From a virus (taxonomy: Duplodnaviria; Caudoviricetes), in IMG/VR virus record IMGVR_UViG_3300010291_000001, positions 1 through 60,137 of that record: DNA of 60,137 bases; one strand, written 5' to 3'. Made by a program: the position numbers and the translations under genes. Below the pieces are notes generated by a model. It was not told where the DNA came from and searched no databases. It saw only the letters and a program-made list of their open reading frames with translations. Below are positions 1-55,147 of the stretch, one piece after another. The stretch's first letter is position 1, and the number at the start of each line of letters is the position of its first letter.

Positions 1-225
1 ATCGGCGCCGAACAGATTGGCGCCGGATAGTCCGGCGCCCTTCAGGTCGGCACTGTACAAACTGGCGCCGACCAGATCGGCGCCGGTGAGGTCGGCGCCG
101 ACCAGATCGGCGCCGGCCAGATTTGCTTCGGGGAGGTGCGCTCCCCGCAACCCCCCCTCCCCACAAAAAAGGACCTCTCCACTCAAGTTTTCAATCTTTA
201 CCTCTTCCACTGAAACATCCTCCAT
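1..225 (-). CDS. Pentapeptide-repeat protein (runs off the window edge)
   Basis: Reverse strand reads [20 protein letters not shown]...[42 protein letters not shown], i.e. A(D/N)LxG repeats; AAAGGA RBS upstream. Not in the ORF track because it is truncated. Confidence 0.85.
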
Positions 226-322
226 GGTCCACATCCTTTCGTTTGGGGGCTATGCCCCCATCCTGCCCCGGTGCCCCGCCGCAGCCACCACGGCCGCGGT
301 TTTTACAGGGCTACTCTATATA

Positions 323-352: not shown

Positions 353-1615
353 TTATTGAAATACTTCCTTTACCGCCTGCGCCTCCGGCCCCAGGTCCTT
401 AAACGTACCGGTCGTTTCATCGAACACGGCCTCTATTTTATCTCCAGCCGGGCCGTGTCTGTTTTTCAGTATGTGAAACAAAGACTGGCTCCTCGTGTAA
501 GCCGTAGGATCATGCCTGTAGGGCCTCGTGACAATCATAACCACGTCGCCCTGCTCTTCGATTGTGCCGCTCTCTTTCAGCGACGACAGTGTCGGGTTCG
601 CCCAGAACTCATCGGCAGCCCTGTTCAGCTGGCTTGCCACAAACACGCACGCGTCTACGCTCTTTTTCAGGTGTAGAAGGCCCTCGGTGATCCTCATCAT
701 GCTGTGTCTTGGGTCATAGGCATCGGTTGTCACTATCTGAATATAATCCACCATAATAGCCCCTATCTCCTTGTGCTCCAGGCACATACGCTCAGCCGCA
801 GACATGAGCTCGTTTATGCTTATGCCGGTCTTGTCAACCATCCATAACGGCATTTCGCGCAACTCTTCAACCGCCGCCTGCATATCAGCCTTCTCTTCGT
901 CTGTCATGTTGTCGCGCTGTATCCCGGTCGAGTTGATCTGCTTGTATATACACGCGAGCTTTGTTACCGCCTCCGGCCCGGTTATCTCGGGGGAAAACAG
1001 GAGCACTCCGACCCCGTTGAGCAGGCAATTCAAGGCTGTATTATAGACAAACGCGCTTTTGCCCATCGACGGTCTGCCGCCAAGAAACACCAGCTCGTTT
1101 TTGTGCAGCCCGCCCAACACCTCATTAAACGACTCAAGCGGATACCCGCAGGCTATCTTGCTTTTTGTCAGCGGGTGCGGCAGGGAGTCTCCGTGTAACA
1201 CTTCCATACCCAGTTCCCCCGATGACGCGGCGACAATCCGTGCCCTTATCTCGTCTACGGGCATGGCGTTGTTCCGGAGTCCGTCGGCGCATAACTCGAG
1301 CTCCCTGGCCACCTGGTTCTTTTTGTCAAGGTCCTTTATTGACCTTATTGCCCTTTCAAGGTCTGCCGTTGTCTTGAGCGGCATCCAGGATTTAGGCTTT
1401 TTGGCCAGCATGTTCTTTATCCATTGAATGCCGTCCATTGGAATGTCCAGCCTTTTGCTGATGACCCTGGATAGCGTTTTGCTTAGAACCGGATCAAGCG
1501 TTTCACGGCCCGTGAGCTCGAGCATTGCGACAACGTTTCCCCGTGTTTCGTATTCACGGGTGAAGAAGTCAAGAATCGACATTGTTAATTGGTTTATCAA
1601 TATATTGCGGTCCAT
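353..1615 (-). CDS. dnaB: Replicative DNA helicase, DnaB family
   Basis: Walker A GGRPSMGKS, VDYIQ, SQLNR, LKESGTIEEQGDVV, KNRHG. Confidence 0.92.
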   Translation of the reverse strand: MDRNILINQLTMSILDFFTREYETRGNVVAMLELTGRETLDPVLSKTLSRVISKRLDIPMDGIQWIKNMLAKKPKSWMPLKTTADLERAIRSIKDLDKKNQVARELELCADGLRNNAMPVDEIRARIVAASSGELGMEVLHGDSLPHPLTKSKIACGYPLESFNEVLGGLHKNELVFLGGRPSMGKSAFVYNTALNCLLNGVGVLLFSPEITGPEAVTKLACIYKQINSTGIQRDNMTDEEKADMQAAVEELREMPLWMVDKTGISINELMSAAERMCLEHKEIGAIMVDYIQIVTTDAYDPRHSMMRITEGLLHLKKSVDACVFVASQLNRAADEFWANPTLSSLKESGTIEEQGDVVMIVTRPYRHDPTAYTRSQSLFHILKNRHGPAGDKIEAVFDETTGTFKDLGPEAQAVKEVFQ

Positions 1616-9639: not shown

Positions 9640-10491
9640 CTACTTCCGTATCAGCTTTTTGATTTTCGGGAGCACCCCGCCGATCGTCTTACTGGCTTTC
9701 GGAAGTATTGCGCCGAGCTTTTCTCCCGGCCCGCCGACGTACGGCGCCAGGGCCGGAACAAGCCCGGCCCCGGCAGCAAGAGCGCCCATTTTTATCCCGG
9801 CGTCCCTGTACGTCGCCATCGCCCTGTCGAGAGCTTCCTTGTCCTCTTTGGACGAGAGGTGCTTCTTGGCTTTCGCCGTCGCCAGCCCTTCAGAGATAAG
9901 CGGCGCAAGCGCCAGCGGCGCGGTAAGTATTGCGGCTATCCCCAGCGGCACCGCAATAGGCGACCGGGCCAGCAGTGCTCCGATGCCGGAAAGCGCAAGA
10001 CCCAACGGTATCGGGGATGCCACCTGCGGCAGAAGGGTCGCCAGTATATTTGTGTTGAGGTGCCCTATTTCGTGGGCGGCGATCGCGCCCGCGGCCGGCA
10101 CCGTATTAGACACAAAAGCCATGTTCAGTCCAGGGAAGGCGATTCCACCCCCACCGCCTATCGCCTGCCCCATAAACTCATACAGCGACGCACCATACAG
10201 CTCGCGCTCGTATTTTGCAATATCCTTGTCTTTGTGAATGCCGGCCAGCCGCTCCGCTTCTTTTCTGATGGTGGGACCGTGCATTTTACCGAGATGCCTG
10301 CTTAGTGCGTCCCTGGCCTTCGCAATGCTGCTGTCCTGGTCAAACACAATCAGCAGGGGTTTGTGTGTATCCCGGAGCGGAGCGGTCATGTTGTTGTATA
10401 TTTCGGCAATCTGCTTTTTCGCAGAATCGTGTATGCTGTCCGGTAGAACAAGTTTCATTTGTTTTCCCCTTCCAGCCTGACCAGCCGCCAT
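9640..10491 (-). CDS. Putative membrane zinc metallopeptidase
   Basis: AAHEIGH (HExxH), two hydrophobic helices, then EGLAT as third-ligand region; basic amphipathic tail. Confidence 0.7.
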   Translation of the reverse strand: MAAGQAGRGKQMKLVLPDSIHDSAKKQIAEIYNNMTAPLRDTHKPLLIVFDQDSSIAKARDALSRHLGKMHGPTIRKEAERLAGIHKDKDIAKYERELYGASLYEFMGQAIGGGGGIAFPGLNMAFVSNTVPAAGAIAAHEIGHLNTNILATLLPQVASPIPLGLALSGIGALLARSPIAVPLGIAAILTAPLALAPLISEGLATAKAKKHLSSKEDKEALDRAMATYRDAGIKMGALAAGAGLVPALAPYVGGPGEKLGAILPKASKTIGGVLPKIKKLIRK

Positions 10492-12596
10492 TTATCGTCC
10501 GGCTGCTTCAGGAGAATAAACTCGTTTCCTATATCGCCCAGCGATTTCGCCTTTTTGCCGGTTATCGAAAACCTTATCCTGTCGGGCGTGCTGTATTTTA
10601 TATTGGCGACGCCCTGAAACACGGTTGATACCGTCCCCTTGCCGTAGCCGCCCGGTATGGTTCCCCTGAAACGGAAGTAACTGAGCGGGTGAGACGCCTG
10701 TCTTGCGACAAGCGTCGTTTTGTGTTGCTCGTCCGGCAGCCTGATGGTGGCCCATGAGTGTCCTGCCCGCGCCTTCTTGTCCCACATCCTTATGTCATAA
10801 TGTTTATGCCTGGCCCTGTGCCGCTGTATGACAAACGGCCACTTTTCGTTTTCGGTGCTCGTGATCTCGTGTATGCCTCTTGCCCTGTAGTCATGGCCGG
10901 ACCCGAGCTTTCTTATCGACGCCATCTGTTTTGCGAGCCGGCCGACGCCCCGTATAAACCCCAGCCCCCCGACCGCCCGGGCGGCTGCCCACGATGCCCC
11001 GCGCCCCAGGCCTCTTATACCGGACAGTATCCTACCCCTTCTCCTGATAATGGAGGGAAGCGTAAGTGCGCCCATTGTAACAGCCCCGCCCATGAGCGCA
11101 GCGCGCTGTCTCGGCGACATCGTCCATCGCGGGGTTTGTATGGCGTTCCAGAAATCTTTTACGGCTTTTTCCTTGCTTTCGGCCACGCGGTACACGTGTT
11201 GGTCTATGGCTCCGTCCCCGGTCTTGGGATCCGCTATATATTTATTGACCACCACCCTTCTCTGACCGGCAGGAAACGCCCGCAGGCCCCCGCGCCGCAC
11301 CCCGCGCCCGATTATCTGTTTTATTTTCATTGGATTATAATGGCCGTCCAGCAGGGATATCATGGTAGTGTCCGGCAGGTTAAGCCCCTCAGCCCCGGCC
11401 CCCGTTATCAACAGGATACGCTTGTTTCCCTTCCTGAAGTTGTCTACCGCCTGCTCTTTGAGATTTTGAGGCATCCCACCGGTAAACTTGGCAAATGGAA
11501 TGTTAAGCTTCGAAAGGGCTGTGCCCAGCGTCCTGGTCCCGTGATTCTTGAAGCTGGAATACATAAGAACACGGTTACGCGGGTCTGTGGCTATATGGTC
11601 GAGTGCGTCTTTTACGGCCCTTACGGCCTTTGAGCTGGCAAACGGCATACTGCGCTTTGAGGCGGTCAGGTATCCCGGATCATTGCTCACCTGTCTTGCC
11701 GCCATGGCCCTGTTGACGATGCGCTCAGCCAGGTTTATATCGAGTTTCTTGTCTTTGAGCAGGGATATCTCTCTTTTCGACAAGTCCTTCCTAAGCGCCC
11801 TCCTGTAGGCTGTACGCTGTACCTGGTTCATCGGCACTATAACGAATTGCTCTTTTACGGAGGGCATGTCGGGGGCTTTGGCTGTTGGCATCATAAACAC
11901 GTCGCCGAACATCCTCGCCATGGTTCTTTGATTATAATAGCCTTTCAGCTCGCCGGACCCCGGCTTGCCGGTTACTATCGCCCTGATATGCTCCATTACC
12001 CCGCGCAGGCGCCGGTTTTCGAACTTGCGGCTGAATTCCCCGATTTTCATTGGCCTTGGAGAAATTACGTTGTGGATGTTTAGTGCTTCATAAACATTGT
12101 TTTGCGCCGGTGTTGCGGTAAGGCCTATCATGTGCTTTGACCGGCCCCGCAGCCTGCGGAGTACGGCGTGATTTACAGTCGTTTTGTCCTTGGCCCGATG
12201 AATTTCATCTGCTATGACAGTGTCGTAGCCGGTAAGCCGGGGCGCGTTTTTGCGGGCCAGGTCATAGGATATTACCGAAAAGTCTCTGTTCCTGAATCTG
12301 TCTATATCTCTCGATGAGTTGATGACGCCCACCGACGCATTTGTGTACTTTCTGACATTATCGGCGAAATTGCGTTTCAGGGCGGCCGGAACGACAACCA
12401 GCGCGTTGCGCGACCTGCCGGTCTCTCTGAGCCTCAGTGCCGCAGCTATGCTGGCAAGGGTCTTGCCCGTGCCGGTGTCGGCCGCGTTTACGCCGCTTCC
12501 TTGGCGCTCAATGAATTTGACGAAATTCGCCTGGTCGCCGGTGAGGCGGACGCCTTTTTTGAGGCCTGGAATATCGGCAAAGTCGTTAGTCTTCAT
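10455..12596 (-). CDS. SNF2-family helicase fused to a LigD-type 3'-phosphoesterase domain
   Basis: DTGTGKT, DEIH, TATP, AGAEGLNL, QIIGRGVR; C-terminal FVIQRH...HYDIR...SWA...HPLSY..F.GTIP.GYGKG.V. Confidence 0.85.
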   Translation of the reverse strand: MKTNDFADIPGLKKGVRLTGDQANFVKFIERQGSGVNAADTGTGKTLASIAAALRLRETGRSRNALVVVPAALKRNFADNVRKYTNASVGVINSSRDIDRFRNRDFSVISYDLARKNAPRLTGYDTVIADEIHRAKDKTTVNHAVLRRLRGRSKHMIGLTATPAQNNVYEALNIHNVISPRPMKIGEFSRKFENRRLRGVMEHIRAIVTGKPGSGELKGYYNQRTMARMFGDVFMMPTAKAPDMPSVKEQFVIVPMNQVQRTAYRRALRKDLSKREISLLKDKKLDINLAERIVNRAMAARQVSNDPGYLTASKRSMPFASSKAVRAVKDALDHIATDPRNRVLMYSSFKNHGTRTLGTALSKLNIPFAKFTGGMPQNLKEQAVDNFRKGNKRILLITGAGAEGLNLPDTTMISLLDGHYNPMKIKQIIGRGVRRGGLRAFPAGQRRVVVNKYIADPKTGDGAIDQHVYRVAESKEKAVKDFWNAIQTPRWTMSPRQRAALMGGAVTMGALTLPSIIRRRGRILSGIRGLGRGASWAAARAVGGLGFIRGVGRLAKQMASIRKLGSGHDYRARGIHEITSTENEKWPFVIQRHRARHKHYDIRMWDKKARAGHSWATIRLPDEQHKTTLVARQASHPLSYFRFRGTIPGGYGKGTVSTVFQGVANIKYSTPDRIRFSITGKKAKSLGDIGNEFILLKQPDDKWRLVRLEGENK

Positions 12597-16960: not shown

Positions 16961-16985
16961 AAAAAAAAGGGGCGTGTTTCGCCCC
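16961..16985 (-). terminator. Intrinsic terminator
   Basis: GGGGCG-AAACA-CGCCCC followed by T8 on the minus strand. Confidence 0.75.
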
Positions 16986-17021
16986 CTCGCCTATAATGTT
17001 CTGTTGCTGCCCGCGCTCAAT

Positions 17022-17166
17022 AAAAAAGGGGGTGGCCCCTCCCCGACCAATTGCCCGTTATTGGGCGGGCGCCGGCCCGCGCCTTTCGGCGGGGCGCCTG
17101 GCGGCGATTTTAGATCGGGGGGCACTCCCTCCCCTTTTAGAGGGAACAACAACCATCATTCCCTCT
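17022..17166 (-). ncRNA. Candidate structured ncRNA (about 145 nt)
   Basis: Class A promoter upstream, 12-bp 5' hairpin, GC-rich multibranch fold, ends in a T6 tract, no credible ORF. Confidence 0.5.
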
Positions 17167-17204: not shown

Positions 17205-17567
17205 TGGTGGAGGTGGCGGGGATCGAACCCGCGTCCGGAACTATTTCGCGCTTGACCTTCTTCATGCTTAGTCGGTTTGTTTTGGCCGGTAACCAACAAA
17301 CCGGCGAGCCGTCTTTCCGGTACCTGTCATTCAGTCTTTCCTGAAAGCCATTTGGTCTTTCCCAAAGGCCGGCAGTTCTTTCCTGCTGTCACCCGCTGTT
17401 GTGTCCCGGCTTCCGCTACTGCGGGCCCTACGGAGTCGGGGGCTGCAATTAAGCAGCCTTGCGTATTGCCGTGGCAGGTTATGCGCAGTCGACTTTTTAC
17501 GAGGCCTGTCGACCAACCTCGACATGCTTCTTCAAACGCTCGATACCCGTCGATTCCATTCACCCCC
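17205..17567 (-). ncRNA. ssrA: tmRNA
   Basis: 5' GGGGGTG pairs with 3' CACCTCC-ACCA giving G3:U70; TCGAC D-loop region; T-arm GCGGGTTCGATCCCCGC; pk1; tag frame ending GCT GCT TAA inside a hairpin; 363 nt. Confidence 0.95.
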
Positions 17568-17571
17568 ATGC

Positions 17572-17581
17572 AAAATTATAA
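17572..17581 (-). promoter_or_regulatory. Class B promoter motif immediately upstream of tmRNA
   Basis: GTGTTATAATTTT ends 4 nt before the mature 5' end. Confidence 0.65.
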
Positions 17582-17585
17582 CACG

Positions 17586-18167
17586 TTACTGGTTTATGAA
17601 AATGTTAACGACCATTTCCTGGTCGTCGCTTCCTTCCTTGCCGGTTTCTTTCGGCCACGACGCCACCGGCTCTGCCTTGGCGTGTCCTATCAGCTTATGC
17701 TGACGCTTGGCGGTTTTTTTCATATCTTTTCTTCGGCAATCCAGGCATTTCCCGGTAATAAAGCCCCGCACTTCAGGGTTCCACTGCATCCGCAGCACTC
17801 CTTTTGTCTCTTTGCACCTGGGGCACGTGACTTTTTCCGGTATGCTCTTTATCATTTCGATATGCTTGGCTTGTATTTTATCCGTCTTTTTATGCTTTAT
17901 GTAATCCCGCACAATATCCATGTCTTCTTTTAGGCCAGCATAACGAGCCCTGCGTTTGATGCGCCCTGCGGGGTTTCTGCGTCGGTCGGGCTTTGCCGCC
18001 AAGCTCTTCGGCCAGATATTCGCATTGACTCTGGGTCTGGCCAGCACCTCAACGTCAGCGTTGAGCTTCTTCTTGCCATCCCCCCACCAGAAGGCCAACT
18101 GCTTTTTATTGACCTTGGCGTTGCTTATTTTCATGGTGGCAGTTGCCACCCTTTCGAACTTTGGCAC
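17586..18167 (-). CDS. Highly basic protein with a CxxC...CxxC zinc site
   Basis: DRRRNPAGRIKRRAR, CPRC, CLDC; AAGGAG RBS. Confidence 0.65.
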   Translation of the reverse strand: MPKFERVATATMKISNAKVNKKQLAFWWGDGKKKLNADVEVLARPRVNANIWPKSLAAKPDRRRNPAGRIKRRARYAGLKEDMDIVRDYIKHKKTDKIQAKHIEMIKSIPEKVTCPRCKETKGVLRMQWNPEVRGFITGKCLDCRRKDMKKTAKRQHKLIGHAKAEPVASWPKETGKEGSDDQEMVVNIFINQ

Positions 18168-18907: not shown

Positions 18908-19282
18908 CTAATCTGTTTCCGGGGGCATGTAGTTGCCTTTTTGGCGGTCCTCAAGCTCACCGATCTTTGATTTGTTCCAGTTCGATGCATTGGAATAGTA
19001 TCCGACGACCCGCGTAAATGTATACAGCACCGGGTGTTCCACGCGATCATTCAAGATCGCCATGAGGGTGCTTGAGCCGCTTTCGTCCAGATTCCGCAGG
19101 ATGTCCAGTGGCACCCGGTAACACGTTCGTTCGGTTTGTATATCGAGATATTCGTCTCCCGGCCCGAATTTCACCATGCCCTTTCCGGCCCTCTCCAGAA
19201 TAAGCTCACGGAGCTTGTTCCAATTGGGTGACGTTGGTTTTGGGTGGGTTATCGGAACGGTCTCTACCTGTATATTCGACAT
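18908..19282 (-). CDS. Stand-alone NrdD-type glycyl-radical C-terminal domain protein
   Basis: TRVVGYYSNASNWNKSKIGELEDR; only about 124 aa; AGGAGG RBS. Confidence 0.75.
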   Translation of the reverse strand: MSNIQVETVPITHPKPTSPNWNKLRELILERAGKGMVKFGPGDEYLDIQTERTCYRVPLDILRNLDESGSSTLMAILNDRVEHPVLYTFTRVVGYYSNASNWNKSKIGELEDRQKGNYMPPETD

Positions 19283-19331
19283 GGAATCCTCCTGGGCTAC
19301 CAAAAGTATACGACGAGCCGAAACGTTACGG

Positions 19332-21932: not shown

Positions 21933-22648
21933 TGGAAAAGGATACTTGTCAGGGGATAATCGAGAAGCTGGCCGGCGATAAAGGCGTTACGGTCGATCAG
22001 GCCGGGCCGTTTCTCAAAAAGCTCGTTGATAAAATAAAGGCCGCTGAAAGCCGGCCAGTTAACCATGAGGCTGAGATGTATAAAGCCGCAGACGCGGACG
22101 AGCTGGCCGCTCACTGCATAGCGGCGGTCCGTGAGGAGCTCATGAAGTACGGGGACGTTTATAAAGACGCCGGCCCCGGCTCCAAGATTGGAGCATGGCT
22201 GAAACCCACCGCCCCGATGCTTGCGGCAATAGGCGTAACATTGGGGGTCGGTGAGCTCAGGAACCTGTTGCGCAGCGTACACAGCAGCAAGAAAGTGGAA
22301 AGAAGCCGCGAGTGGCTTAAGCGGAACGACCCGGAGCTGGCAAAAGACCCCAAGTTTAACTTTTATTTCAATACGCTGAAAGACTTCGCTCCGCACGTGG
22401 CAGCCAACCCACTGTCCGCGATACCCATTCTTCAGGAAATGAAGGAGTGGGGCTATGTCGGCCAGAACACGATAAACGCCATTACCAAAATAGAGCAGAC
22501 GCTCGGCGGCATAGAAAAACAGGAACACGAGGCCGGCAGGGCCTTTGAAGAGGCGGCAGCGAAGAGAATGCAGTTAATGGGAAGCATCGGCGAGCTGTTC
22601 GGCGAGCCCGGCGCCGGACCCAGCGCGGGAGGTGGGGGGACTTCGTGA
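21932..22648 (+). CDS. Putative virion protein with a hydrophobic helix
   Basis: Coupled ORF; KLAG; ...F.TLKDFAPHVAANPL.A. Confidence 0.55.
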   Translation: MEKDTCQGIIEKLAGDKGVTVDQAGPFLKKLVDKIKAAESRPVNHEAEMYKAADADELAAHCIAAVREELMKYGDVYKDAGPGSKIGAWLKPTAPMLAAIGVTLGVGELRNLLRSVHSSKKVERSREWLKRNDPELAKDPKFNFYFNTLKDFAPHVAANPLSAIPILQEMKEWGYVGQNTINAITKIEQTLGGIEKQEHEAGRAFEEAAAKRMQLMGSIGELFGEPGAGPSAGGGGTS

Positions 22649-24894
22649 GCGACATTATAAAAGAAATATCGCTTGACGTTATCAGCAAGCTCGCCGATGA
22701 TACAGCCGCCAAAGAGGTCGTCAGTCCGTATATCCCCGACGACGTCAAGAAGTATATAGAAGAAAACCGCCAGGCGTGGAAGGCCGACGACAAGCATATA
22801 TATCTTCTTGTCGTGGCGCTCAGCGCGTCCGACTTCTTTGGACCCAACACGAGGGGTGACTATTTCCCCGAAAGCGCCCTTCTCGGCATACAGCACGACT
22901 GGGAGGCAAAAAGGTACAATCCGAAGGGCAAGAAGGACACGCGGGTCCCCAGGTACAAGACGTTCGAGTGGGCGAAGGTTTACCGAGACCACAACCAGAA
23001 CCAGCCCATAGGCGACGTTCTCAAGGCGTTCTGGGATGATGACTGCAAAAGAGTGCTCTGCGTGGTCAGGGTAAGTAAGGATCTCGCCCCCGATGTTGAG
23101 CAGATGATAGCCTCCGGTATGAGGCCGGCCTTCAGTATGGGACTGAAAGAACCGTTCGACTTCTGCCTTCACCCCGATATGCCGGTTTTTACGCAGGCGG
23201 GCTGGAGGAAGATAAAAGAAGTCAAGGTAGACGACTACGTATTTACCAGCTCCCGCGCCTTCAAGCGCGTAAAAGGCGTGTCGTCGAGCTTTCCCGAAGA
23301 GAGGGTTTCCATTTCCACCTCGCTTATGCCGGATCTTGTCGTGTCGCCTAACCATTTTATATTCATTGAGGGTGAATCCGGCCTCGTAAAGCGCCCGGCG
23401 TGTCAGCTTAATATAGGCGATAAGATGGTTATACCGCTTTACGCCGGATGCGAAGATGACGACGTAAACAGCAATAATGTTATACTATCGTCCATGTTCA
23501 GGCGGGACAGTGGGGCATCAAAGGAAAAATACCTGGGAGAGGCGATAGGCCTTTTATTTAACGGCAAGTGGGCCGTGCGCGGCAAGTGGTACAGCATCAG
23601 CGCGCTGGGCCTGGCCGACGCCGAGGGCCTGTTGAACGCTTTCTGGTCTCTTGGAATACCTGCAAGGCTTGATAGTCACAAGCTGTTTGTGTATACGCCG
23701 GGGCTCGTCTATAGCCTTCTGGGCTGTGACGACTACATTGTCGAGCCAAAGGATATAGATGGCCTTGGCGTGTACTTTAATGGAACGCACATTGTTGTCC
23801 CCATAACCGAGATCAGGCGCAGCGCGAACGACGAGGAGTTTTTCGATCTTACTGTCGAGGAAGACGAAAACTATCTTTCGTATTTTCTTGTAAGTAATTG
23901 CTCTATATGTGGTTACAAGAGAACCCCCGGCGATGTCGGTTGCCTGCATACGCGCCTGTCCCTGAACGAGTTTGACGAACATACCCGCAAGAAGATATAT
24001 CGCATTAACAAGGTCTTCTTCTTTCATGACCTTTCAGTTGTTGGGCAGAACCCGGCGGATAAAACCGCATGGGGTCTTTTGAAGGTTGCCTCAGAGAAAG
24101 CCATACGGTCGGGATCTACCTCGCAAAACATAGAGAAAACAGTCTTCAAAAGGCACCCGGCCACCGTAATAGAACCGGACAGCCCGTCCGGTAAGGTATT
24201 CATGCGGGTGCAGATGTTGTCGGGGTCCGAGCGCCCGTTTAACGACAGCGTTCTTTCCGCGCTTGCCAAACGGGGCCCGGACGCGGTGTTTTCAGCCCTT
24301 ATGAAGCTGGGCATGGTTCTGTCGCCTTCTGAATATTACAAATATAGGCTTGCCGGCGGCGATAAGCTGGAGTCCCCGCCCGCCCCTCCGTCCGATGTCG
24401 CCATGGACAGTGTTATGCCGGTCCTGGAGCCGATGATGTCCGAGAGGTCCTGTCTGTATGAGCCAATGAGGGCCAGGATAATCCGAATGATAATTATCGG
24501 GAAAAGACCTGACCCTCTGCCGGACGCAAGCAAGGTCGGATCCGAATATCTGTCATACCGCGACAGCGTGAACGCCATAGTGCTGAACAAAGAGGCCTCG
24601 GCTGCAAGCGTCATATTGCCCGCGGCGGGCTTTTTTGCTCCGTATTACCTGTCGGCCCATTACCGCAGGAGGGCGTTCGAGGGATATCCGCAGGGGATGA
24701 TAGCGCGGGCGGTATCAAGATACGCCCTTCCTCTTGCTGTTGCCGGAGCGATAGGCGCTCCCCTGGCCGCACAAAAGGGCAAGGCCTGGGTAAAGGCCCT
24801 GTACCGCGGGCTCTCGAAAGCCAAGGTTGCCGGCGGCGACGAAAACATGATTATAGCTGATTTGCTTGCTGATTATGAGGTTGCGTTGAATTAA
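22645..24894 (+). CDS. Prohead-protease-like protein containing an intein
   Basis: GPN.RGDYF, YRDH.N, FSMG...FDF|CSICG...C.H, F.DLSVV..PADKTA; lies upstream of scaffold and capsid genes. Confidence 0.7.
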   Translation: MSDIIKEISLDVISKLADDTAAKEVVSPYIPDDVKKYIEENRQAWKADDKHIYLLVVALSASDFFGPNTRGDYFPESALLGIQHDWEAKRYNPKGKKDTRVPRYKTFEWAKVYRDHNQNQPIGDVLKAFWDDDCKRVLCVVRVSKDLAPDVEQMIASGMRPAFSMGLKEPFDFCLHPDMPVFTQAGWRKIKEVKVDDYVFTSSRAFKRVKGVSSSFPEERVSISTSLMPDLVVSPNHFIFIEGESGLVKRPACQLNIGDKMVIPLYAGCEDDDVNSNNVILSSMFRRDSGASKEKYLGEAIGLLFNGKWAVRGKWYSISALGLADAEGLLNAFWSLGIPARLDSHKLFVYTPGLVYSLLGCDDYIVEPKDIDGLGVYFNGTHIVVPITEIRRSANDEEFFDLTVEEDENYLSYFLVSNCSICGYKRTPGDVGCLHTRLSLNEFDEHTRKKIYRINKVFFFHDLSVVGQNPADKTAWGLLKVASEKAIRSGSTSQNIEKTVFKRHPATVIEPDSPSGKVFMRVQMLSGSERPFNDSVLSALAKRGPDAVFSALMKLGMVLSPSEYYKYRLAGGDKLESPPAPPSDVAMDSVMPVLEPMMSERSCLYEPMRARIIRMIIIGKRPDPLPDASKVGSEYLSYRDSVNAIVLNKEASAASVILPAAGFFAPYYLSAHYRRRAFEGYPQGMIARAVSRYALPLAVAGAIGAPLAAQKGKAWVKALYRGLSKAKVAGGDENMIIADLLADYEVALN
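23164..23898 (+). mobile_element. Intein (245 aa) with a degenerate LAGLIDADG remnant
   Basis: Starts CLHPDMPVFT..G..KIKEVKVDD.V, block B SPNH, block F FDLTVEEDENY, ends VSN before Cys+1. Confidence 0.88.
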
Positions 24895-53221: not shown

Positions 53222-55147
53222 ATGTATGCTTACAACCAAAACCCCGCGACCTGGCCCGACGGACCGTCGAGAATGCCTCAGTCGTTTCCGTTTTACGGAC
53301 GAGACGAACAGGGACAGCCAACCTTCCTGACGGTTCCCACACAATCGTGGTTTCCTACAATAAATCTTGAGTTCGCCGGACAGGCTCCGCGTGAGTTCAT
53401 GCATGGCGGAATAATACCGCAAAAATGGTATGGAAGACACTACGGCCCGCTCCCAAGCGAAACGGCAGTATGGGATGAAAGATTCAAACTGTCCCGATGG
53501 CAAATGGCTGGCGGTCACATCACCAACGTCCTCCTGCCGGTTGGCGGCGAAATCGCATCGTGGGGCGCTTTTGCTATTTCCGCTCCGCTTGCCATTGGAA
53601 TGATGGTTGGGCAGCAAGTAACATCCAACAGGTTTATTGTTCATAGGGGCATAAACCCGCTGTTGGCGGCGGTCGGCCTGGGACCAATAGAGGCCCTCCC
53701 GCTATCATTCAGAGCCAGGCAGGTGACAGAGGTTTTTGGTCTGGATCCCTTCTATGAGCATACCACGGGTTTTATGGCGCTCGGAGAAGGCGTTTGGGGC
53801 AACATGAGGCCGCAGGTCGTCAATATCATTTCAAGACAACTTGCGAGTCGAACCGCCCTTTTTGCCACAAGAATCAGGGGGCGAGATCAGCTTGTCGGGA
53901 GTGCAATAAGGTCCATGTTGACGCGCGAGGTCGGGCAGCTGAACGCCCAGCTCGATAAGATTGAGGCCGGCATAACTACCGCGATGAGATCTACACTGAA
54001 AAGCGCGGATGAAGTCCTCCAGGAAATACTCGATCTACCCAGACCGATAAGGGTGCATTATCATGGAATGTTGGCCGGCATTGAAACGGCTTATACTTCC
54101 GGGCTGGAGCAGCGAGCAGTAGCAATGGGCATGGCTCTCGCGCCCCAAATGGGTATTACCGACCCGGCCGCCGCACAAATGGCGGCTCTTGCCATGCGCT
54201 TTGCCACAGATATTCCGGGCGCCCGCCCCTTTGCCGGACAGGATCTGACCGCCGCAATGGCGACTCTGTATCAAAGCCCGGTATTCCGCGCCGCAACGGC
54301 AGGGATCATAGAGGGCACAAGTGGCGGAGCTATCAGGGCCGGCTTTAATATGTTGGCTGATCCGGCGTTCCGGGTCAGGCAAGCGTTTTCCCTCGAGATC
54401 GGCCCCACGATACATGCGGCGCTGGAGGGCTACCTGCGCGACAGGTATGCCGAGAATCCTGAATGGAAAGACTCGGTCTTTCTTGATTTTCTTGTTGTTT
54501 ACCAAATAGGCGGCATGTCACCGGAATCCCTGAGGGCCCTGTATGGTCGTATGCGCCAGGTTTGGAATAATCTTCGTGGACGGGCGGCTCCTGAAGTCGC
54601 CGGAGACCACGGCACTGTTTCGGCCCCATCATTAAGGGAAGCCAGGAGAGAGCGTATACAGGAATATCTCGGCATTGATCCGTTGGCGGAAGCCGAGAGA
54701 TTCGCGCTCGTCAAGGGGGCTACGGATGTGGAGCGCGCGAAGGCGATCTCTGCCAGGATTCAGCCCAGAAGATACCACATACAACGTGGCCTGGAGCCGG
54801 GCGGCAAAGTCTCTTTTACGACCTGGGGGCGCCAACGGGTGGCCTCATCTACAAAGGAAACCGCCGCCATTATGCGGGAAGAACTGATGGAGTACGCCGA
54901 AGAGTTGGCGGAACAGGGAGACTACACGCTTCTTCACGCTATCCAGAGAAGGGAAGCGATCCGCGAGGCCAAAGCCGGGATCTCTGCCGTTACCGACGCT
55001 AAAACTGCCCAGTTTCTCAGAGGTTTCACCTTGGCCGGGGAATCGCCGCAGGCGCGCGCCGCGCTTGCCGTTGAAATGCTGAAACTTTCAAGATACTCGA
55101 AAGCGTTGACAGAAATGATGTCGGGCGACATTCCACAAACGAAGTAA
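53222..55147 (+). CDS. Tape-measure-like helical protein 2
   Basis: 641 aa, hydrophobic segment near residues 100-125, similar composition to protein 1. Confidence 0.5.
   Translation: MYAYNQNPATWPDGPSRMPQSFPFYGRDEQGQPTFLTVPTQSWFPTINLEFAGQAPREFMHGGIIPQKWYGRHYGPLPSETAVWDERFKLSRWQMAGGHITNVLLPVGGEIASWGAFAISAPLAIGMMVGQQVTSNRFIVHRGINPLLAAVGLGPIEALPLSFRARQVTEVFGLDPFYEHTTGFMALGEGVWGNMRPQVVNIISRQLASRTALFATRIRGRDQLVGSAIRSMLTREVGQLNAQLDKIEAGITTAMRSTLKSADEVLQEILDLPRPIRVHYHGMLAGIETAYTSGLEQRAVAMGMALAPQMGITDPAAAQMAALAMRFATDIPGARPFAGQDLTAAMATLYQSPVFRAATAGIIEGTSGGAIRAGFNMLADPAFRVRQAFSLEIGPTIHAALEGYLRDRYAENPEWKDSVFLDFLVVYQIGGMSPESLRALYGRMRQVWNNLRGRAAPEVAGDHGTVSAPSLREARRERIQEYLGIDPLAEAERFALVKGATDVERAKAISARIQPRRYHIQRGLEPGGKVSFTTWGRQRVASSTKETAAIMREELMEYAEELAEQGDYTLLHAIQRREAIREAKAGISAVTDAKTAQFLRGFTLAGESPQARAALAVEMLKLSRYSKALTEMMSGDIPQTK

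Follow-up and report, generated by a model that had tools for sequence, protein, structure and literature searches.

The DNA examined here is a 60,137-nucleotide (nt) stretch of a virus of the class Caudoviricetes (Duplodnaviria), positions 1 to 60,137 of IMG/VR record IMGVR_UViG_3300010291_000001; we refer to this whole stretch as the window. The record is linear and ~47% complete by CheckV, and its proteins include a large terminase and a sigma factor (phrog_351). The sole Rfam non-coding RNA in the window is a one-piece transfer-messenger RNA (tmRNA) of 363 nt, encoded at 17205-17567 on the minus strand. An earlier reading of the letters, referred to below as the original prediction, had described four tandem hairpins with GAAAGA loops inside this gene. 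We find that the four hairpins fill the place of the third pseudoknot (PK3) in this phage tmRNA, a one-piece molecule of working type, in a variant architecture shared with some bacteria, and that the same hairpin module is reused in other phage RNAs.

A phage tmRNA with four hairpins in the PK3 slot

The window tmRNA matched the Rfam family RF00023 at 125.9 bits (E = 7.4e-49), with model positions 1-374 in order. It thus exceeds the gathering cut-off of 47 bits over the full model. None of the permuted tmRNA models (RF04321, RF01849-51) reached its cut-off in the window, and the elements of the gene run in the same order as in RF00023, with no acceptor piece encoded ahead of the coding piece.

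Between PK2 and a PK4-like element, at tmRNA positions 182-259, lie the four hairpins (Table 1). All of them are present where the original prediction had placed them, on the minus strand, with stems that differ under a conserved loop. On the tmRNA strand the loops follow one another at 21, 21 and 23 nt. A linker of the form RGAC precedes hairpin 1 (GUGACA) and hairpin 4 (UGACAGGUA); the corresponding sequences before hairpins 2 and 3 are CGGCC and UGGC. When folded by itself, the 96-nt array stretch adopts exactly the four hairpins at -32.4 kcal/mol (z = -3.0; 1 of 200 shuffles as good), and all four are kept in both the minimum free energy (MFE) and the centroid folds of the whole tmRNA. The MFE fold lengthens the stem of hairpin 2 by GGCC/GGCU, an extension that, by eye, is not kept in the related phage tmRNA L105 described below. 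The heptamer GGAAAGA occurs at 16 sites in the window, compared with 7.48 +/- 2.71 in shuffles, and 4 of the 16 fall within 72 nt at the array. No second array of GAAAGA hairpins was found in the window.

Two other accounts of the array were rejected. In a hidden pseudoknot, the loop of hairpin 2 would pair with CUUUC in hairpin 3; this CUUUC is found in just one of seven array-bearing tmRNAs, and the units are therefore hairpins rather than hidden pseudoknots. A tandem-repeat origin found no support from Tandem Repeats Finder, which detected no repeat because the array units have only the loop in common.

The remainder of the molecule resembles canonical SsrA (RF00023, E. coli type) in its tRNA-like domain, G3.U pair, helix 2, PK1, tag with a degron-like AA end, stop codon in the loop of helix 5, PK2 and PK4-like element. 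The T arm reads GCGGG-UUCGAUC-CCCGC. PK2 was read by eye, and its region gave no signal in pseudoknot-free folding (z = +0.43). The PK4-like element can be drawn either as a pseudoknot (GCCGG/CCGGC with UUUGUU/AACAAA) or as one long hairpin, and its MFE fold is a bulged 13-bp hairpin at -14.2 kcal/mol. The window tmRNA is thus without the full PK1-PK4 ring: PK1 and PK2 are recognised by eye, hairpins occupy the PK3 slot and PK4 is ambiguous. In contrast to canonical SsrA, it carries four same-loop hairpins in the PK3 slot, lies in a phage record in which no smpB is seen, and encodes a short tag, ATAIRKAA, that ends in R-K-A-A and not in ALAA.

The array also affects how such genes are detected. 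ARAGORN gives no call for the window tmRNA gene, and in the Rfam alignment the array region has low posterior probability. Array-bearing tmRNAs may therefore be under-annotated.

A promoter-like site precedes the gene, its -10 hexamer ending 8 nt 5' of the first G of the tmRNA (a consensus match only), and two terminator-like hairpins follow it. Because of these flanking sites, the tmRNA looks like its own transcription unit, as the consensus matches suggest. No match to SmpB (PF01668) was obtained in the window, as the original prediction had noted, or in five related viral records, all six records being incomplete; host SmpB could serve the phage tmRNA.

Table 1. Elements of the window tmRNA gene and its flanking signals, in 5' to 3' order of the RNA
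Feature	Window position	tmRNA position	Strand	Basis or remark
Promoter-like site: TTTTCA, 16 nt, TATAAT, TG before it (extended -10)	17575..17602		(-)	Consensus scan, 10/12 matches
Acceptor stem		1-7 / 353-359	(-)	Alanine-type, G3.U357 pair; read by eye
PK1: CGAGG/CCUCG + GUCGAC/GUCGAC	17488..17522	46-80	(-)	By eye; high posterior probability against RF00023 PK1
Tag frame: GCC...UAA, ATAIRKAA*	17449..17475	93-119	(-)	Translation; resume codon chosen by analogy
Helix 5: GGCUGC-UUAAUU-GCAGCC	17442-17459	109-126	(-)	Tag stop codon in helix loop
PK2: stem CCCG..CGGG; loop GCCCGC with downstream GCGGGU	17391..17441	127-177	(-)	By eye; partly aligned in Rfam
Hairpin 1: GCAG-GAAAGAA-CUGC, GUGACA 5' of stem	17372-17386		(-)	Folds alone at -5.1 kcal/mol
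Hairpin 2: UUUGG-GAAAGA-CCAAA	17351-17366		(-)	Folds alone at -4.6 kcal/mol
Hairpin 3: UUCAG-GAAAGA-CUGAA	17330-17345		(-)	Folds alone at -4.9 kcal/mol
Hairpin 4: CCG-GAAAGA-CGG, UGACAGGUA 5' of stem	17309-17320		(-)	Folds alone at -3.9 kcal/mol
PK4-like element	17273..17306	262-295	(-)	By eye
T arm, acceptor-stem 3' strand, encoded CCA	17205..17232	from 336	(-)	High-confidence Rfam alignment
Terminator-like hairpin	17033-17049		(-)	Consensus scan
Terminator-like hairpin	16966-16988		(-)	Consensus scan

The array in cellular tmRNAs

The original prediction had proposed to check whether the array is phage-specific. Cellular tmRNAs show that it is not. A metagenome scan yielded 77 loci, nine of which hold tmRNAs with arrays: eight members of a family with tags ending in ...ALAA (ANEQFALAA, AKSDFALAA, AEGDFALAA, ANDNLALAA) and one further tmRNA, L461, treated below. 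Each of the eight carries three perfect GAAAGA hairpins directly 3' of PK2. In 251 genomes sampled from the phylum of G412 (a contig titled 'uncultured Acidimicrobiia bacterium'), the two-unit pattern matched three, and one of these matches is a tmRNA. This bacterial tmRNA (genome G477; 120.4 bits) has three perfect hairpins and the tag ANKQFALAA, and it is the single full-length tmRNA match of its genome; the contig that bears it is 1.88 Mb long or longer. The same tag, ANKQFALAA, is encoded by L213, a tmRNA from IMG/VR that clusters with the ...FALAA family. Given an alignment of seven ...FALAA-family members, RNAalifold predicted the three hairpins unprompted, with compensatory changes in 8 of 16 pairs.

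A degenerate form of the array was found in six tmRNAs that were retrieved through the window-type 5' end, four from metagenome-assembled genomes titled Acidimicrobiia and two from other bacteria. Its layout is a UUGACA-hairpin, a GGAC-hairpin with the loop GAAGAGA and a CUGAC-hairpin with the loop CAAAGA or AAAUAGA. In all four genomes tested, the degenerate-array tmRNA is the only full-length tmRNA. A search for exact loops is too strict for such drifted ones: two copies of exact GGAAAGA occur in none of the 54 genome loci with the window's 5' end, and a strict loop criterion found the array in none of 31 validated bacterial tmRNAs, among which sequence inspection then revealed the six with drifted loops. 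A relaxed criterion flagged 8 of the 31, namely the six Acidimicrobiia-type tmRNAs together with L134 and L176, and it misses L105.

The cellular and window tmRNAs are alike in the slot, in the module and in stretches of sequence. The window and the ...FALAA family have in common, by eye, CAACAG..CGG..GUGAC.GCAGGAAAGAAC, a stretch that covers hairpin 1 and the 3' strand of PK2. The tmRNA 5' end GGGGNUGAAUGGAAUCGAC is common to the window and the Acidimicrobiia-titled tmRNAs, and nhmmer aligns positions ~165-361 of the window query to the Acidimicrobiia-type tmRNAs. The cellular array tmRNAs differ from the window's in being chromosomal, the sole tmRNA, equipped with ordinary ...ALAA tags and furnished with three hairpins, not four, and in those of the Acidimicrobiia type the loops have drifted. 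The cellular array tmRNAs also stand apart from the window in a rough tree.

The original prediction had held that its proposal would fail if host-lineage tmRNAs had the same hairpins. Cellular tmRNAs with the array do exist, in bacteria that may or may not be of the host lineage of this phage, and to that extent the outcome it named as refuting has largely been observed. The 5' end of the window tmRNA matches Saprospiraceae and Acidimicrobiia-titled tmRNAs alike, and the rough tree gives no indication of the host. A search of 50,697 phage records returned no DNA match to the tmRNA, and a terminase search found no close relatives of the window phage in IMG/VR and, in cultured phages, distant terminases and no nearer ones.

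Relatives among phage-type tmRNAs

Scanning IMG/VR for three spaced GGAAAGA copies returned at least 116 loci, and one among those listed, L105, holds a tmRNA akin to that of the window (81.5 bits by nhmmer; 91.1 bits to RF00023). L105 holds three hairpins in the PK3 slot, with stems that differ from the window's at every position, as in the homologous pair GUGG-GAAAGAA-CCAC in L105 and GCAG-GAAAGAA-CUGC in the window. A looser pattern (TGAC, 4 nt, GGAAAGA, 10-18 nt, GGAAAGA), again with at least 116 loci, added four tmRNAs plus L178 among the matches listed. L270 has two hairpins (RF00023, 137.3 bits); L289 and L213 have three each (118.5 and 110 bits), the latter being labelled viral; L274 has two and is interrupted by an insert of ~560 nt. 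L178, with two hairpins, lies at a contig end where only its 3' part is recognised, and by eye it seems to belong to the ...FALAA family. L461, from the metagenome scan, has three hairpins and adjoins RecT, YqaJ and integrase genes. The phage-type tmRNAs besides the window with two or three hairpins directly 3' of PK2 are thus L105, L270, L274, L289 and L461.

The phage-type tags are ATAIRKAA in the window, DTFARPMAA in L105, ATPVRLAA in L270, ANEVRMAA in L274 and AEPLRMAA in L461. They are short and end in R-x-A-A or R-P-M-A-A; those of bacterial array tmRNAs end in ...FALAA or ...LALAA. Given these phage tag ends, proteins tagged during infection may have a different fate.

Some phage tmRNA genes were also unusual in their organisation. 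In the viral tmRNA L274 (1490-2435, minus strand), the insert separates PK1 from the tag. By eye, an open reading frame (ORF) within the insert shows CxxC and HNH/endonuclease-VII-like motifs, and the insert resembles an intron or homing-endonuclease cassette within the tmRNA gene. L119 (1402-1924) looks like an intron-containing phage tmRNA: its tmRNA 5' end is at 1402, and a group I intron (RF00028, 83.2 bits) occupies 1687-1924, ~285 nt further on. Pseudomonas phage SM1 (L431; NC_041877.1, ~54019-54410) has a permuted two-piece beta-type tmRNA (RF01850, 111.2 bits; RF04321, 118.6 bits) that is unannotated, in a feature-free stretch of 1.4 kb; no GAAAGA array is visible there.

The same hairpin module outside tmRNA

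The hairpin unit is an uncatalogued, portable module that is reused across phage mRNA leaders, tRNA spacers and both phage and cellular tmRNAs. It consists of a stem of 3-6 bp of free sequence and a GAAAGA loop, often with an RGAC (mostly UGAC) linker just 5' of the stem, ~20 nt per copy. Copies stand in tandem, ~19-23 nt apart, on the transcribed strand and in the orientation of the downstream gene or RNA.

Pairing in these units exceeds expectation. Among 73 distinct pattern matches, both GGAAAGA copies lie in hairpins of at least 3 bp in 32, whereas 500 shuffles of the flanks gave 2.9 on average and never more than 9; for hairpins of at least 4 bp the figures are 22 of 73 and 0.49 expected. 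In an alignment of 74 distinct units, 86.5% of cells are paired (52.8% shuffled) and the covariation score is 0.884 (0.212 shuffled; 0 of 500 shuffles as high). The three inner pairs of this alignment are imposed by selection of the units and the fourth and fifth are not; these outer pairs are formed in 57 and 41 of the 74 units, respectively. Conservation of each loop column is complete or no lower than 90%, with four of the six positions invariant and a G-C closing pair in 66 of 74 units, a conservation that is partly imposed, as two hairpins per locus were selected through the GGAAAGA pattern. GAC lies 0-2 nt from the stem in 29 of the 50 units in which it is not forced by the pattern, which suggests that the linker belongs to the unit.

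The 38 distinct arrays occur in several settings. Four are inside a tmRNA; 15 stand ahead of an ORF of 231 amino acids or more, their ends 7-36 nt from its start and often directly before a GGAGG-type site; two stand 17-34 nt before a tRNA; five stand 42-75 nt after a tRNA-Ser; and 12 are in no assigned setting. The phages with leader or tRNA arrays are mostly other phages than those with array tmRNAs. When ten downstream ORFs were compared with PHROGs, six matched phrog_13908 (no known function), two matched transposase phrog_310, one matched phrog_296 and one gave no match. The phrog_13908 ORFs have LQLFA-like N-termini, which we take to resemble scaffold proteins. Genes for Mu-like transposases (phrog_310) and a transposition protein (phrog_296) follow the arrays of L200, L285 and L272 at a distance of 18-36 nt, which shows that the module is not confined to late or structural genes. 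L186, L211, L217, L221, L239 and near-identical loci share another arrangement, which recurs in many viral contigs: a tRNA-Ser, a spacer of 42-75 nt, two GAAAGA hairpins and a conserved GC-rich segment of ~70 nt (GGGAGCGUCCGGUGGCAG...).

Rfam searches of 16 array-bearing loci detected no family besides tmRNA and tRNA. To our knowledge, the K-turn, the ANTAR dual hexaloop, the CsrA site and small ribozymes are all unlike the module in loop size or sequence. We found no description of GAAAGA-loop arrays in the literature searched, including the accessible text of PMC3968760, PMC1168896 and PMC11915505; supplements and tmRNA databases may hold such sequences.

These settings bear on what the array might do. 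One possibility is docking to the 30S subunit, in which the displayed G-GAAAG would pair with CUUUCU-3', the tail of many 16S rRNAs just 3' of the anti-Shine-Dalgarno core, and so offer tmRNA and leader mRNAs extra landing sites. Many 16S rRNAs end in CCUCCUUUCU, the 15 leader arrays end shortly before ORF starts, and tmRNA itself works on the 30S subunit. However, the conserved last A of the loop would mismatch the rRNA, the first G is held in the closing pair, and a hexaloop hardly pairs over 5-6 nt; arrays also occur beside tRNAs, which need no ribosomes. We consider such docking improbable.

Outside tmRNA, the arrays are found where RNA units begin, ahead of ORFs and tRNAs or behind a tRNA-Ser, and they could instead mark cleavage or 5'-end protection. 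As a processing signal, the array would have the tmRNA cut in the PK3 slot into two pieces, which helix 2 and the acceptor stem would keep joined. The break of two-piece tmRNAs lies in the PK3 region, and phages do carry permuted tmRNAs, that of SM1 being an example. According to the accessible part of PMC3968760, two-piece tmRNAs are natural and working. The window gene, however, is not permuted, and bacteria whose sole tmRNA has the array give no hint of a dedicated nuclease. This explanation has a slim chance of being right.

The presence of the module in many unrelated non-coding settings, together with the tolerance of the PK3 slot to change, would also fit a selfish or neutral insertion, in which a short mobile repeat that forms a hairpin entered the tmRNA gene at a site that tolerates it. 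Copies within one array, however, have no common stem sequence, unlike the products of recent transposition; what is conserved is pairing and loop, not sequence, and the position is fixed directly 3' of PK2 in all tmRNAs examined. An insertion of this kind is hardly credible.

Neighbouring genes and candidate partners

The original prediction also named a ligand for the hairpins, the product of the ORF at 17586-18167, which ends 19 nt upstream of the first base of the tmRNA on the same strand. This ORF encodes a basic, Arg/Lys-rich protein of 193 amino acids, of zinc-ribbon type, with CPRC...CLDC motifs. On this account the array would be a phage-specific platform bound by the 193-amino-acid protein, as lambda N is bound on boxB; the adjacency of the genes, the character of the protein and purine-rich loops that recall boxB speak for it. 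The protein, however, is an orphan. Pfam assigns it to no family, and PHROGs give only a marginal hit (E = 0.0097). A tblastn search of 50,697 phage records was without a match, and IMG/VR yielded no relative. A homologue was found in none of the five other records with array tmRNAs, which are 7-79% complete. Adjacency is thus its sole link to the hairpins, with no co-occurrence, and the array is present in bacteria and in phages without the protein. We judge this pairing of protein and array very improbable.

The comparison with boxB likewise amounts to a resemblance. The lambda boxB hairpin has a short stem and a purine-rich loop of the G-A-A-A type, and is recognised via its loop more than its stem. 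It is, however, a single pentaloop in a nascent leader together with boxA and acts on RNA polymerase, whereas the window has tandem loops of 6-7 nt in a mature, stable RNA, and no N-like protein was found.

The only protein family common to four of the six viral records with array tmRNAs is an SNF2/DEAD-type helicase, which we take to be an ordinary phage helicase and not a candidate reader of the hairpins. In the window (10455-12596, minus strand), this SNF2-type helicase is fused to a LigD 3'-phosphoesterase domain (PF13298). In two other records it lies close to the tmRNA, at a distance of 38 nt (G003:110656-112722) and ~500 nt (G002:1637-3577).

Two further ORFs of the window deserve mention. 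An ORF of 749 amino acids (22645-24894, plus strand) contains, by eye, a possible intein segment starting at CLHPD... in the middle of a structural-looking protein. Another, of 131 amino acids (18908-19303, minus strand), matches only the last ~27 residues of the anaerobic ribonucleotide reductase NrdD (PF13597; 19.4 bits, below the cut-off). The matched C-terminal region is, we assume, the glycyl-radical site, and the ORF may encode a spare glycyl-radical 'cap' protein.

Discussion

The four-pseudoknot ring is typical of tmRNA but not obligatory, as described in the accessible parts of PMC1168896 and PMC3968760. PK3 is absent from cyanobacterial and organellar tmRNAs (PMC1168896, in the part available), and natural two-piece tmRNAs have fewer pseudoknots and still work (PMC3968760, likewise in part). 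The available text of PMC3968760 further reports that PK2-PK4 of E. coli tmRNA can be replaced with little loss of tagging, their main role being in folding and maturation, and that the pseudoknot ring wraps the 30S head and is contacted by S1. The original prediction's premise that the array slot normally holds a pseudoknot agrees with the same text. These reduced-ring tmRNAs show that the PK3 position is dispensable or replaceable in natural, active molecules. The window tmRNA differs from them in that their pseudoknots are lost or swapped for others; neither source, in its accessible parts, describes repeats of one hairpin under a constant loop.

We consider it probable, by a modest measure, that the array is an inherited replacement of PK3, built of portable hairpins that have a cellular reader. 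The array would have been inherited and not invented by the window phage, as its layout is present in other phage tmRNAs and in sole bacterial tmRNAs. It would perform the job of PK3 by aiding the folding of the ring and keeping the RNA stable. The fixed purine loop and the RGAC linker would be contact points for a trans-acting reader: because the stems drift under a fixed loop and linker, and because the unit is reused in unrelated RNAs, something probably reads the loop. Such a reader would more likely be a conserved cellular factor than a phage protein. The first candidates may be ribosomal protein S1 or the 30S subunit, S1 because its binding to the pseudoknot ring of tmRNA has been reported and because it also binds mRNA leaders. 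The idea of a multivalent protein-binding platform, put forward in the original prediction, is a fair one in this respect, since a conserved loop on varying stems would fit a sequence-specific reader; the array itself is not phage-specific.

There are known RNAs that would work in a similar manner. Sponge RNAs of the CsrB/RsmZ type present a single motif on numerous short hairpins whose stems vary, which suits them to multivalent binding. The analogy is one of working only: CsrA reads GGA in a loop of the ANGGA type, whereas the window displays GAAAGA, with the first G of GGA paired. The phage leader GAAAGA hairpins have the same unit and tandem spacing and covarying stems, but lie outside a mature stable RNA.

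Several points weigh against an inherited array with a cellular reader. The majority of sampled tmRNAs are without the array. By the strict loop criterion, one of six viral tmRNAs of the window type has it; of the viral tmRNAs with the general 5' pattern, 32 were validated and none has it. The two-unit pattern is absent from all 401 genomes of the phylum of G006 (a contig titled Lachnospiraceae). In five bacterial genomes tested, three of five unit-pattern matches are inside tmRNAs, and the six viral records with array tmRNAs contain no array outside the tmRNA. The unit is thus nearly confined to tmRNA in array-bearing genomes, which therefore give no sign of a general cellular reader that has further targets. 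A rough tree of 80 tmRNAs, built with FastTree and lacking support values, places the window, L105, L274, L270 and L461 apart from the bacterial array clade; common descent of the arrays is therefore unproven, and convergence or transfer of the module is possible. S1 as the reader is a guess from the literature and general background, and it leaves the arrays beside tRNAs unexplained. Finally, the conserved loop could reflect an intrinsic fold rather than a partner.

This last point leads to a simpler account, in which the hairpins are pure structural filler of the PK3 slot and their loop and linker are kept for a favourable, nuclease-resistant or well-stacking fold. The replaceability of PK2-PK4 in E. 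coli (PMC3968760, in the part available) and the near confinement of the unit to tmRNA in array-bearing genomes favour it, as does the modest stability of each hairpin alone. Filler, however, needs no fixed loop, yet four of the six loop positions are invariant over the 74 units (in part through their selection) while the stems are free. The loop and linker also recur in mRNA leaders and tRNA spacers, and hairpin 4 has just 3 bp. We know of no special stability of GAAAGA hexaloops, which counts further against this account. On balance we think that filler is unlikely.

Our preferred reading, an inherited PK3 replacement with a probable cellular reader, may be extended further, and here we are tentative: it is possible, though we rather doubt it, that the RGAC-stem-GAAAGA unit serves as an RNA 'handle' recognised by a single conserved factor of the cell, perhaps S1 or some other protein associated with the 30S subunit or with RNA decay. 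Some bacteria would employ the handle as a building block of their tmRNA ring, and phages would have copied it onto tmRNAs, leaders and tRNA transcripts. The leaders concerned would be those of an uncharacterised PHROG family, transposition proteins and giant proteins, and the use of the handle would perhaps be to plug these RNAs into host machinery. If true, this would define a new and widespread class of RNA-protein recognition element in bacteria and phages.

Few bacterial RNAs have been studied as thoroughly as tmRNA, whose ring tends to be regarded as a generic scaffold; in this case repeats of a tiny hairpin, with a fixed loop and drifting stems, stand in for an entire pseudoknot. If there is no reader, the arrays are a natural experiment on how little ring a tmRNA needs. 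The occurrence of one hairpin in three settings, cellular tmRNA, phage tmRNA and phage mRNA or tRNA leaders, points to a shared, as yet unnamed reader. If such a reader exists, it would link ribosome rescue to phage gene expression, and the module would also provide a simple, portable RNA tag for experiments.

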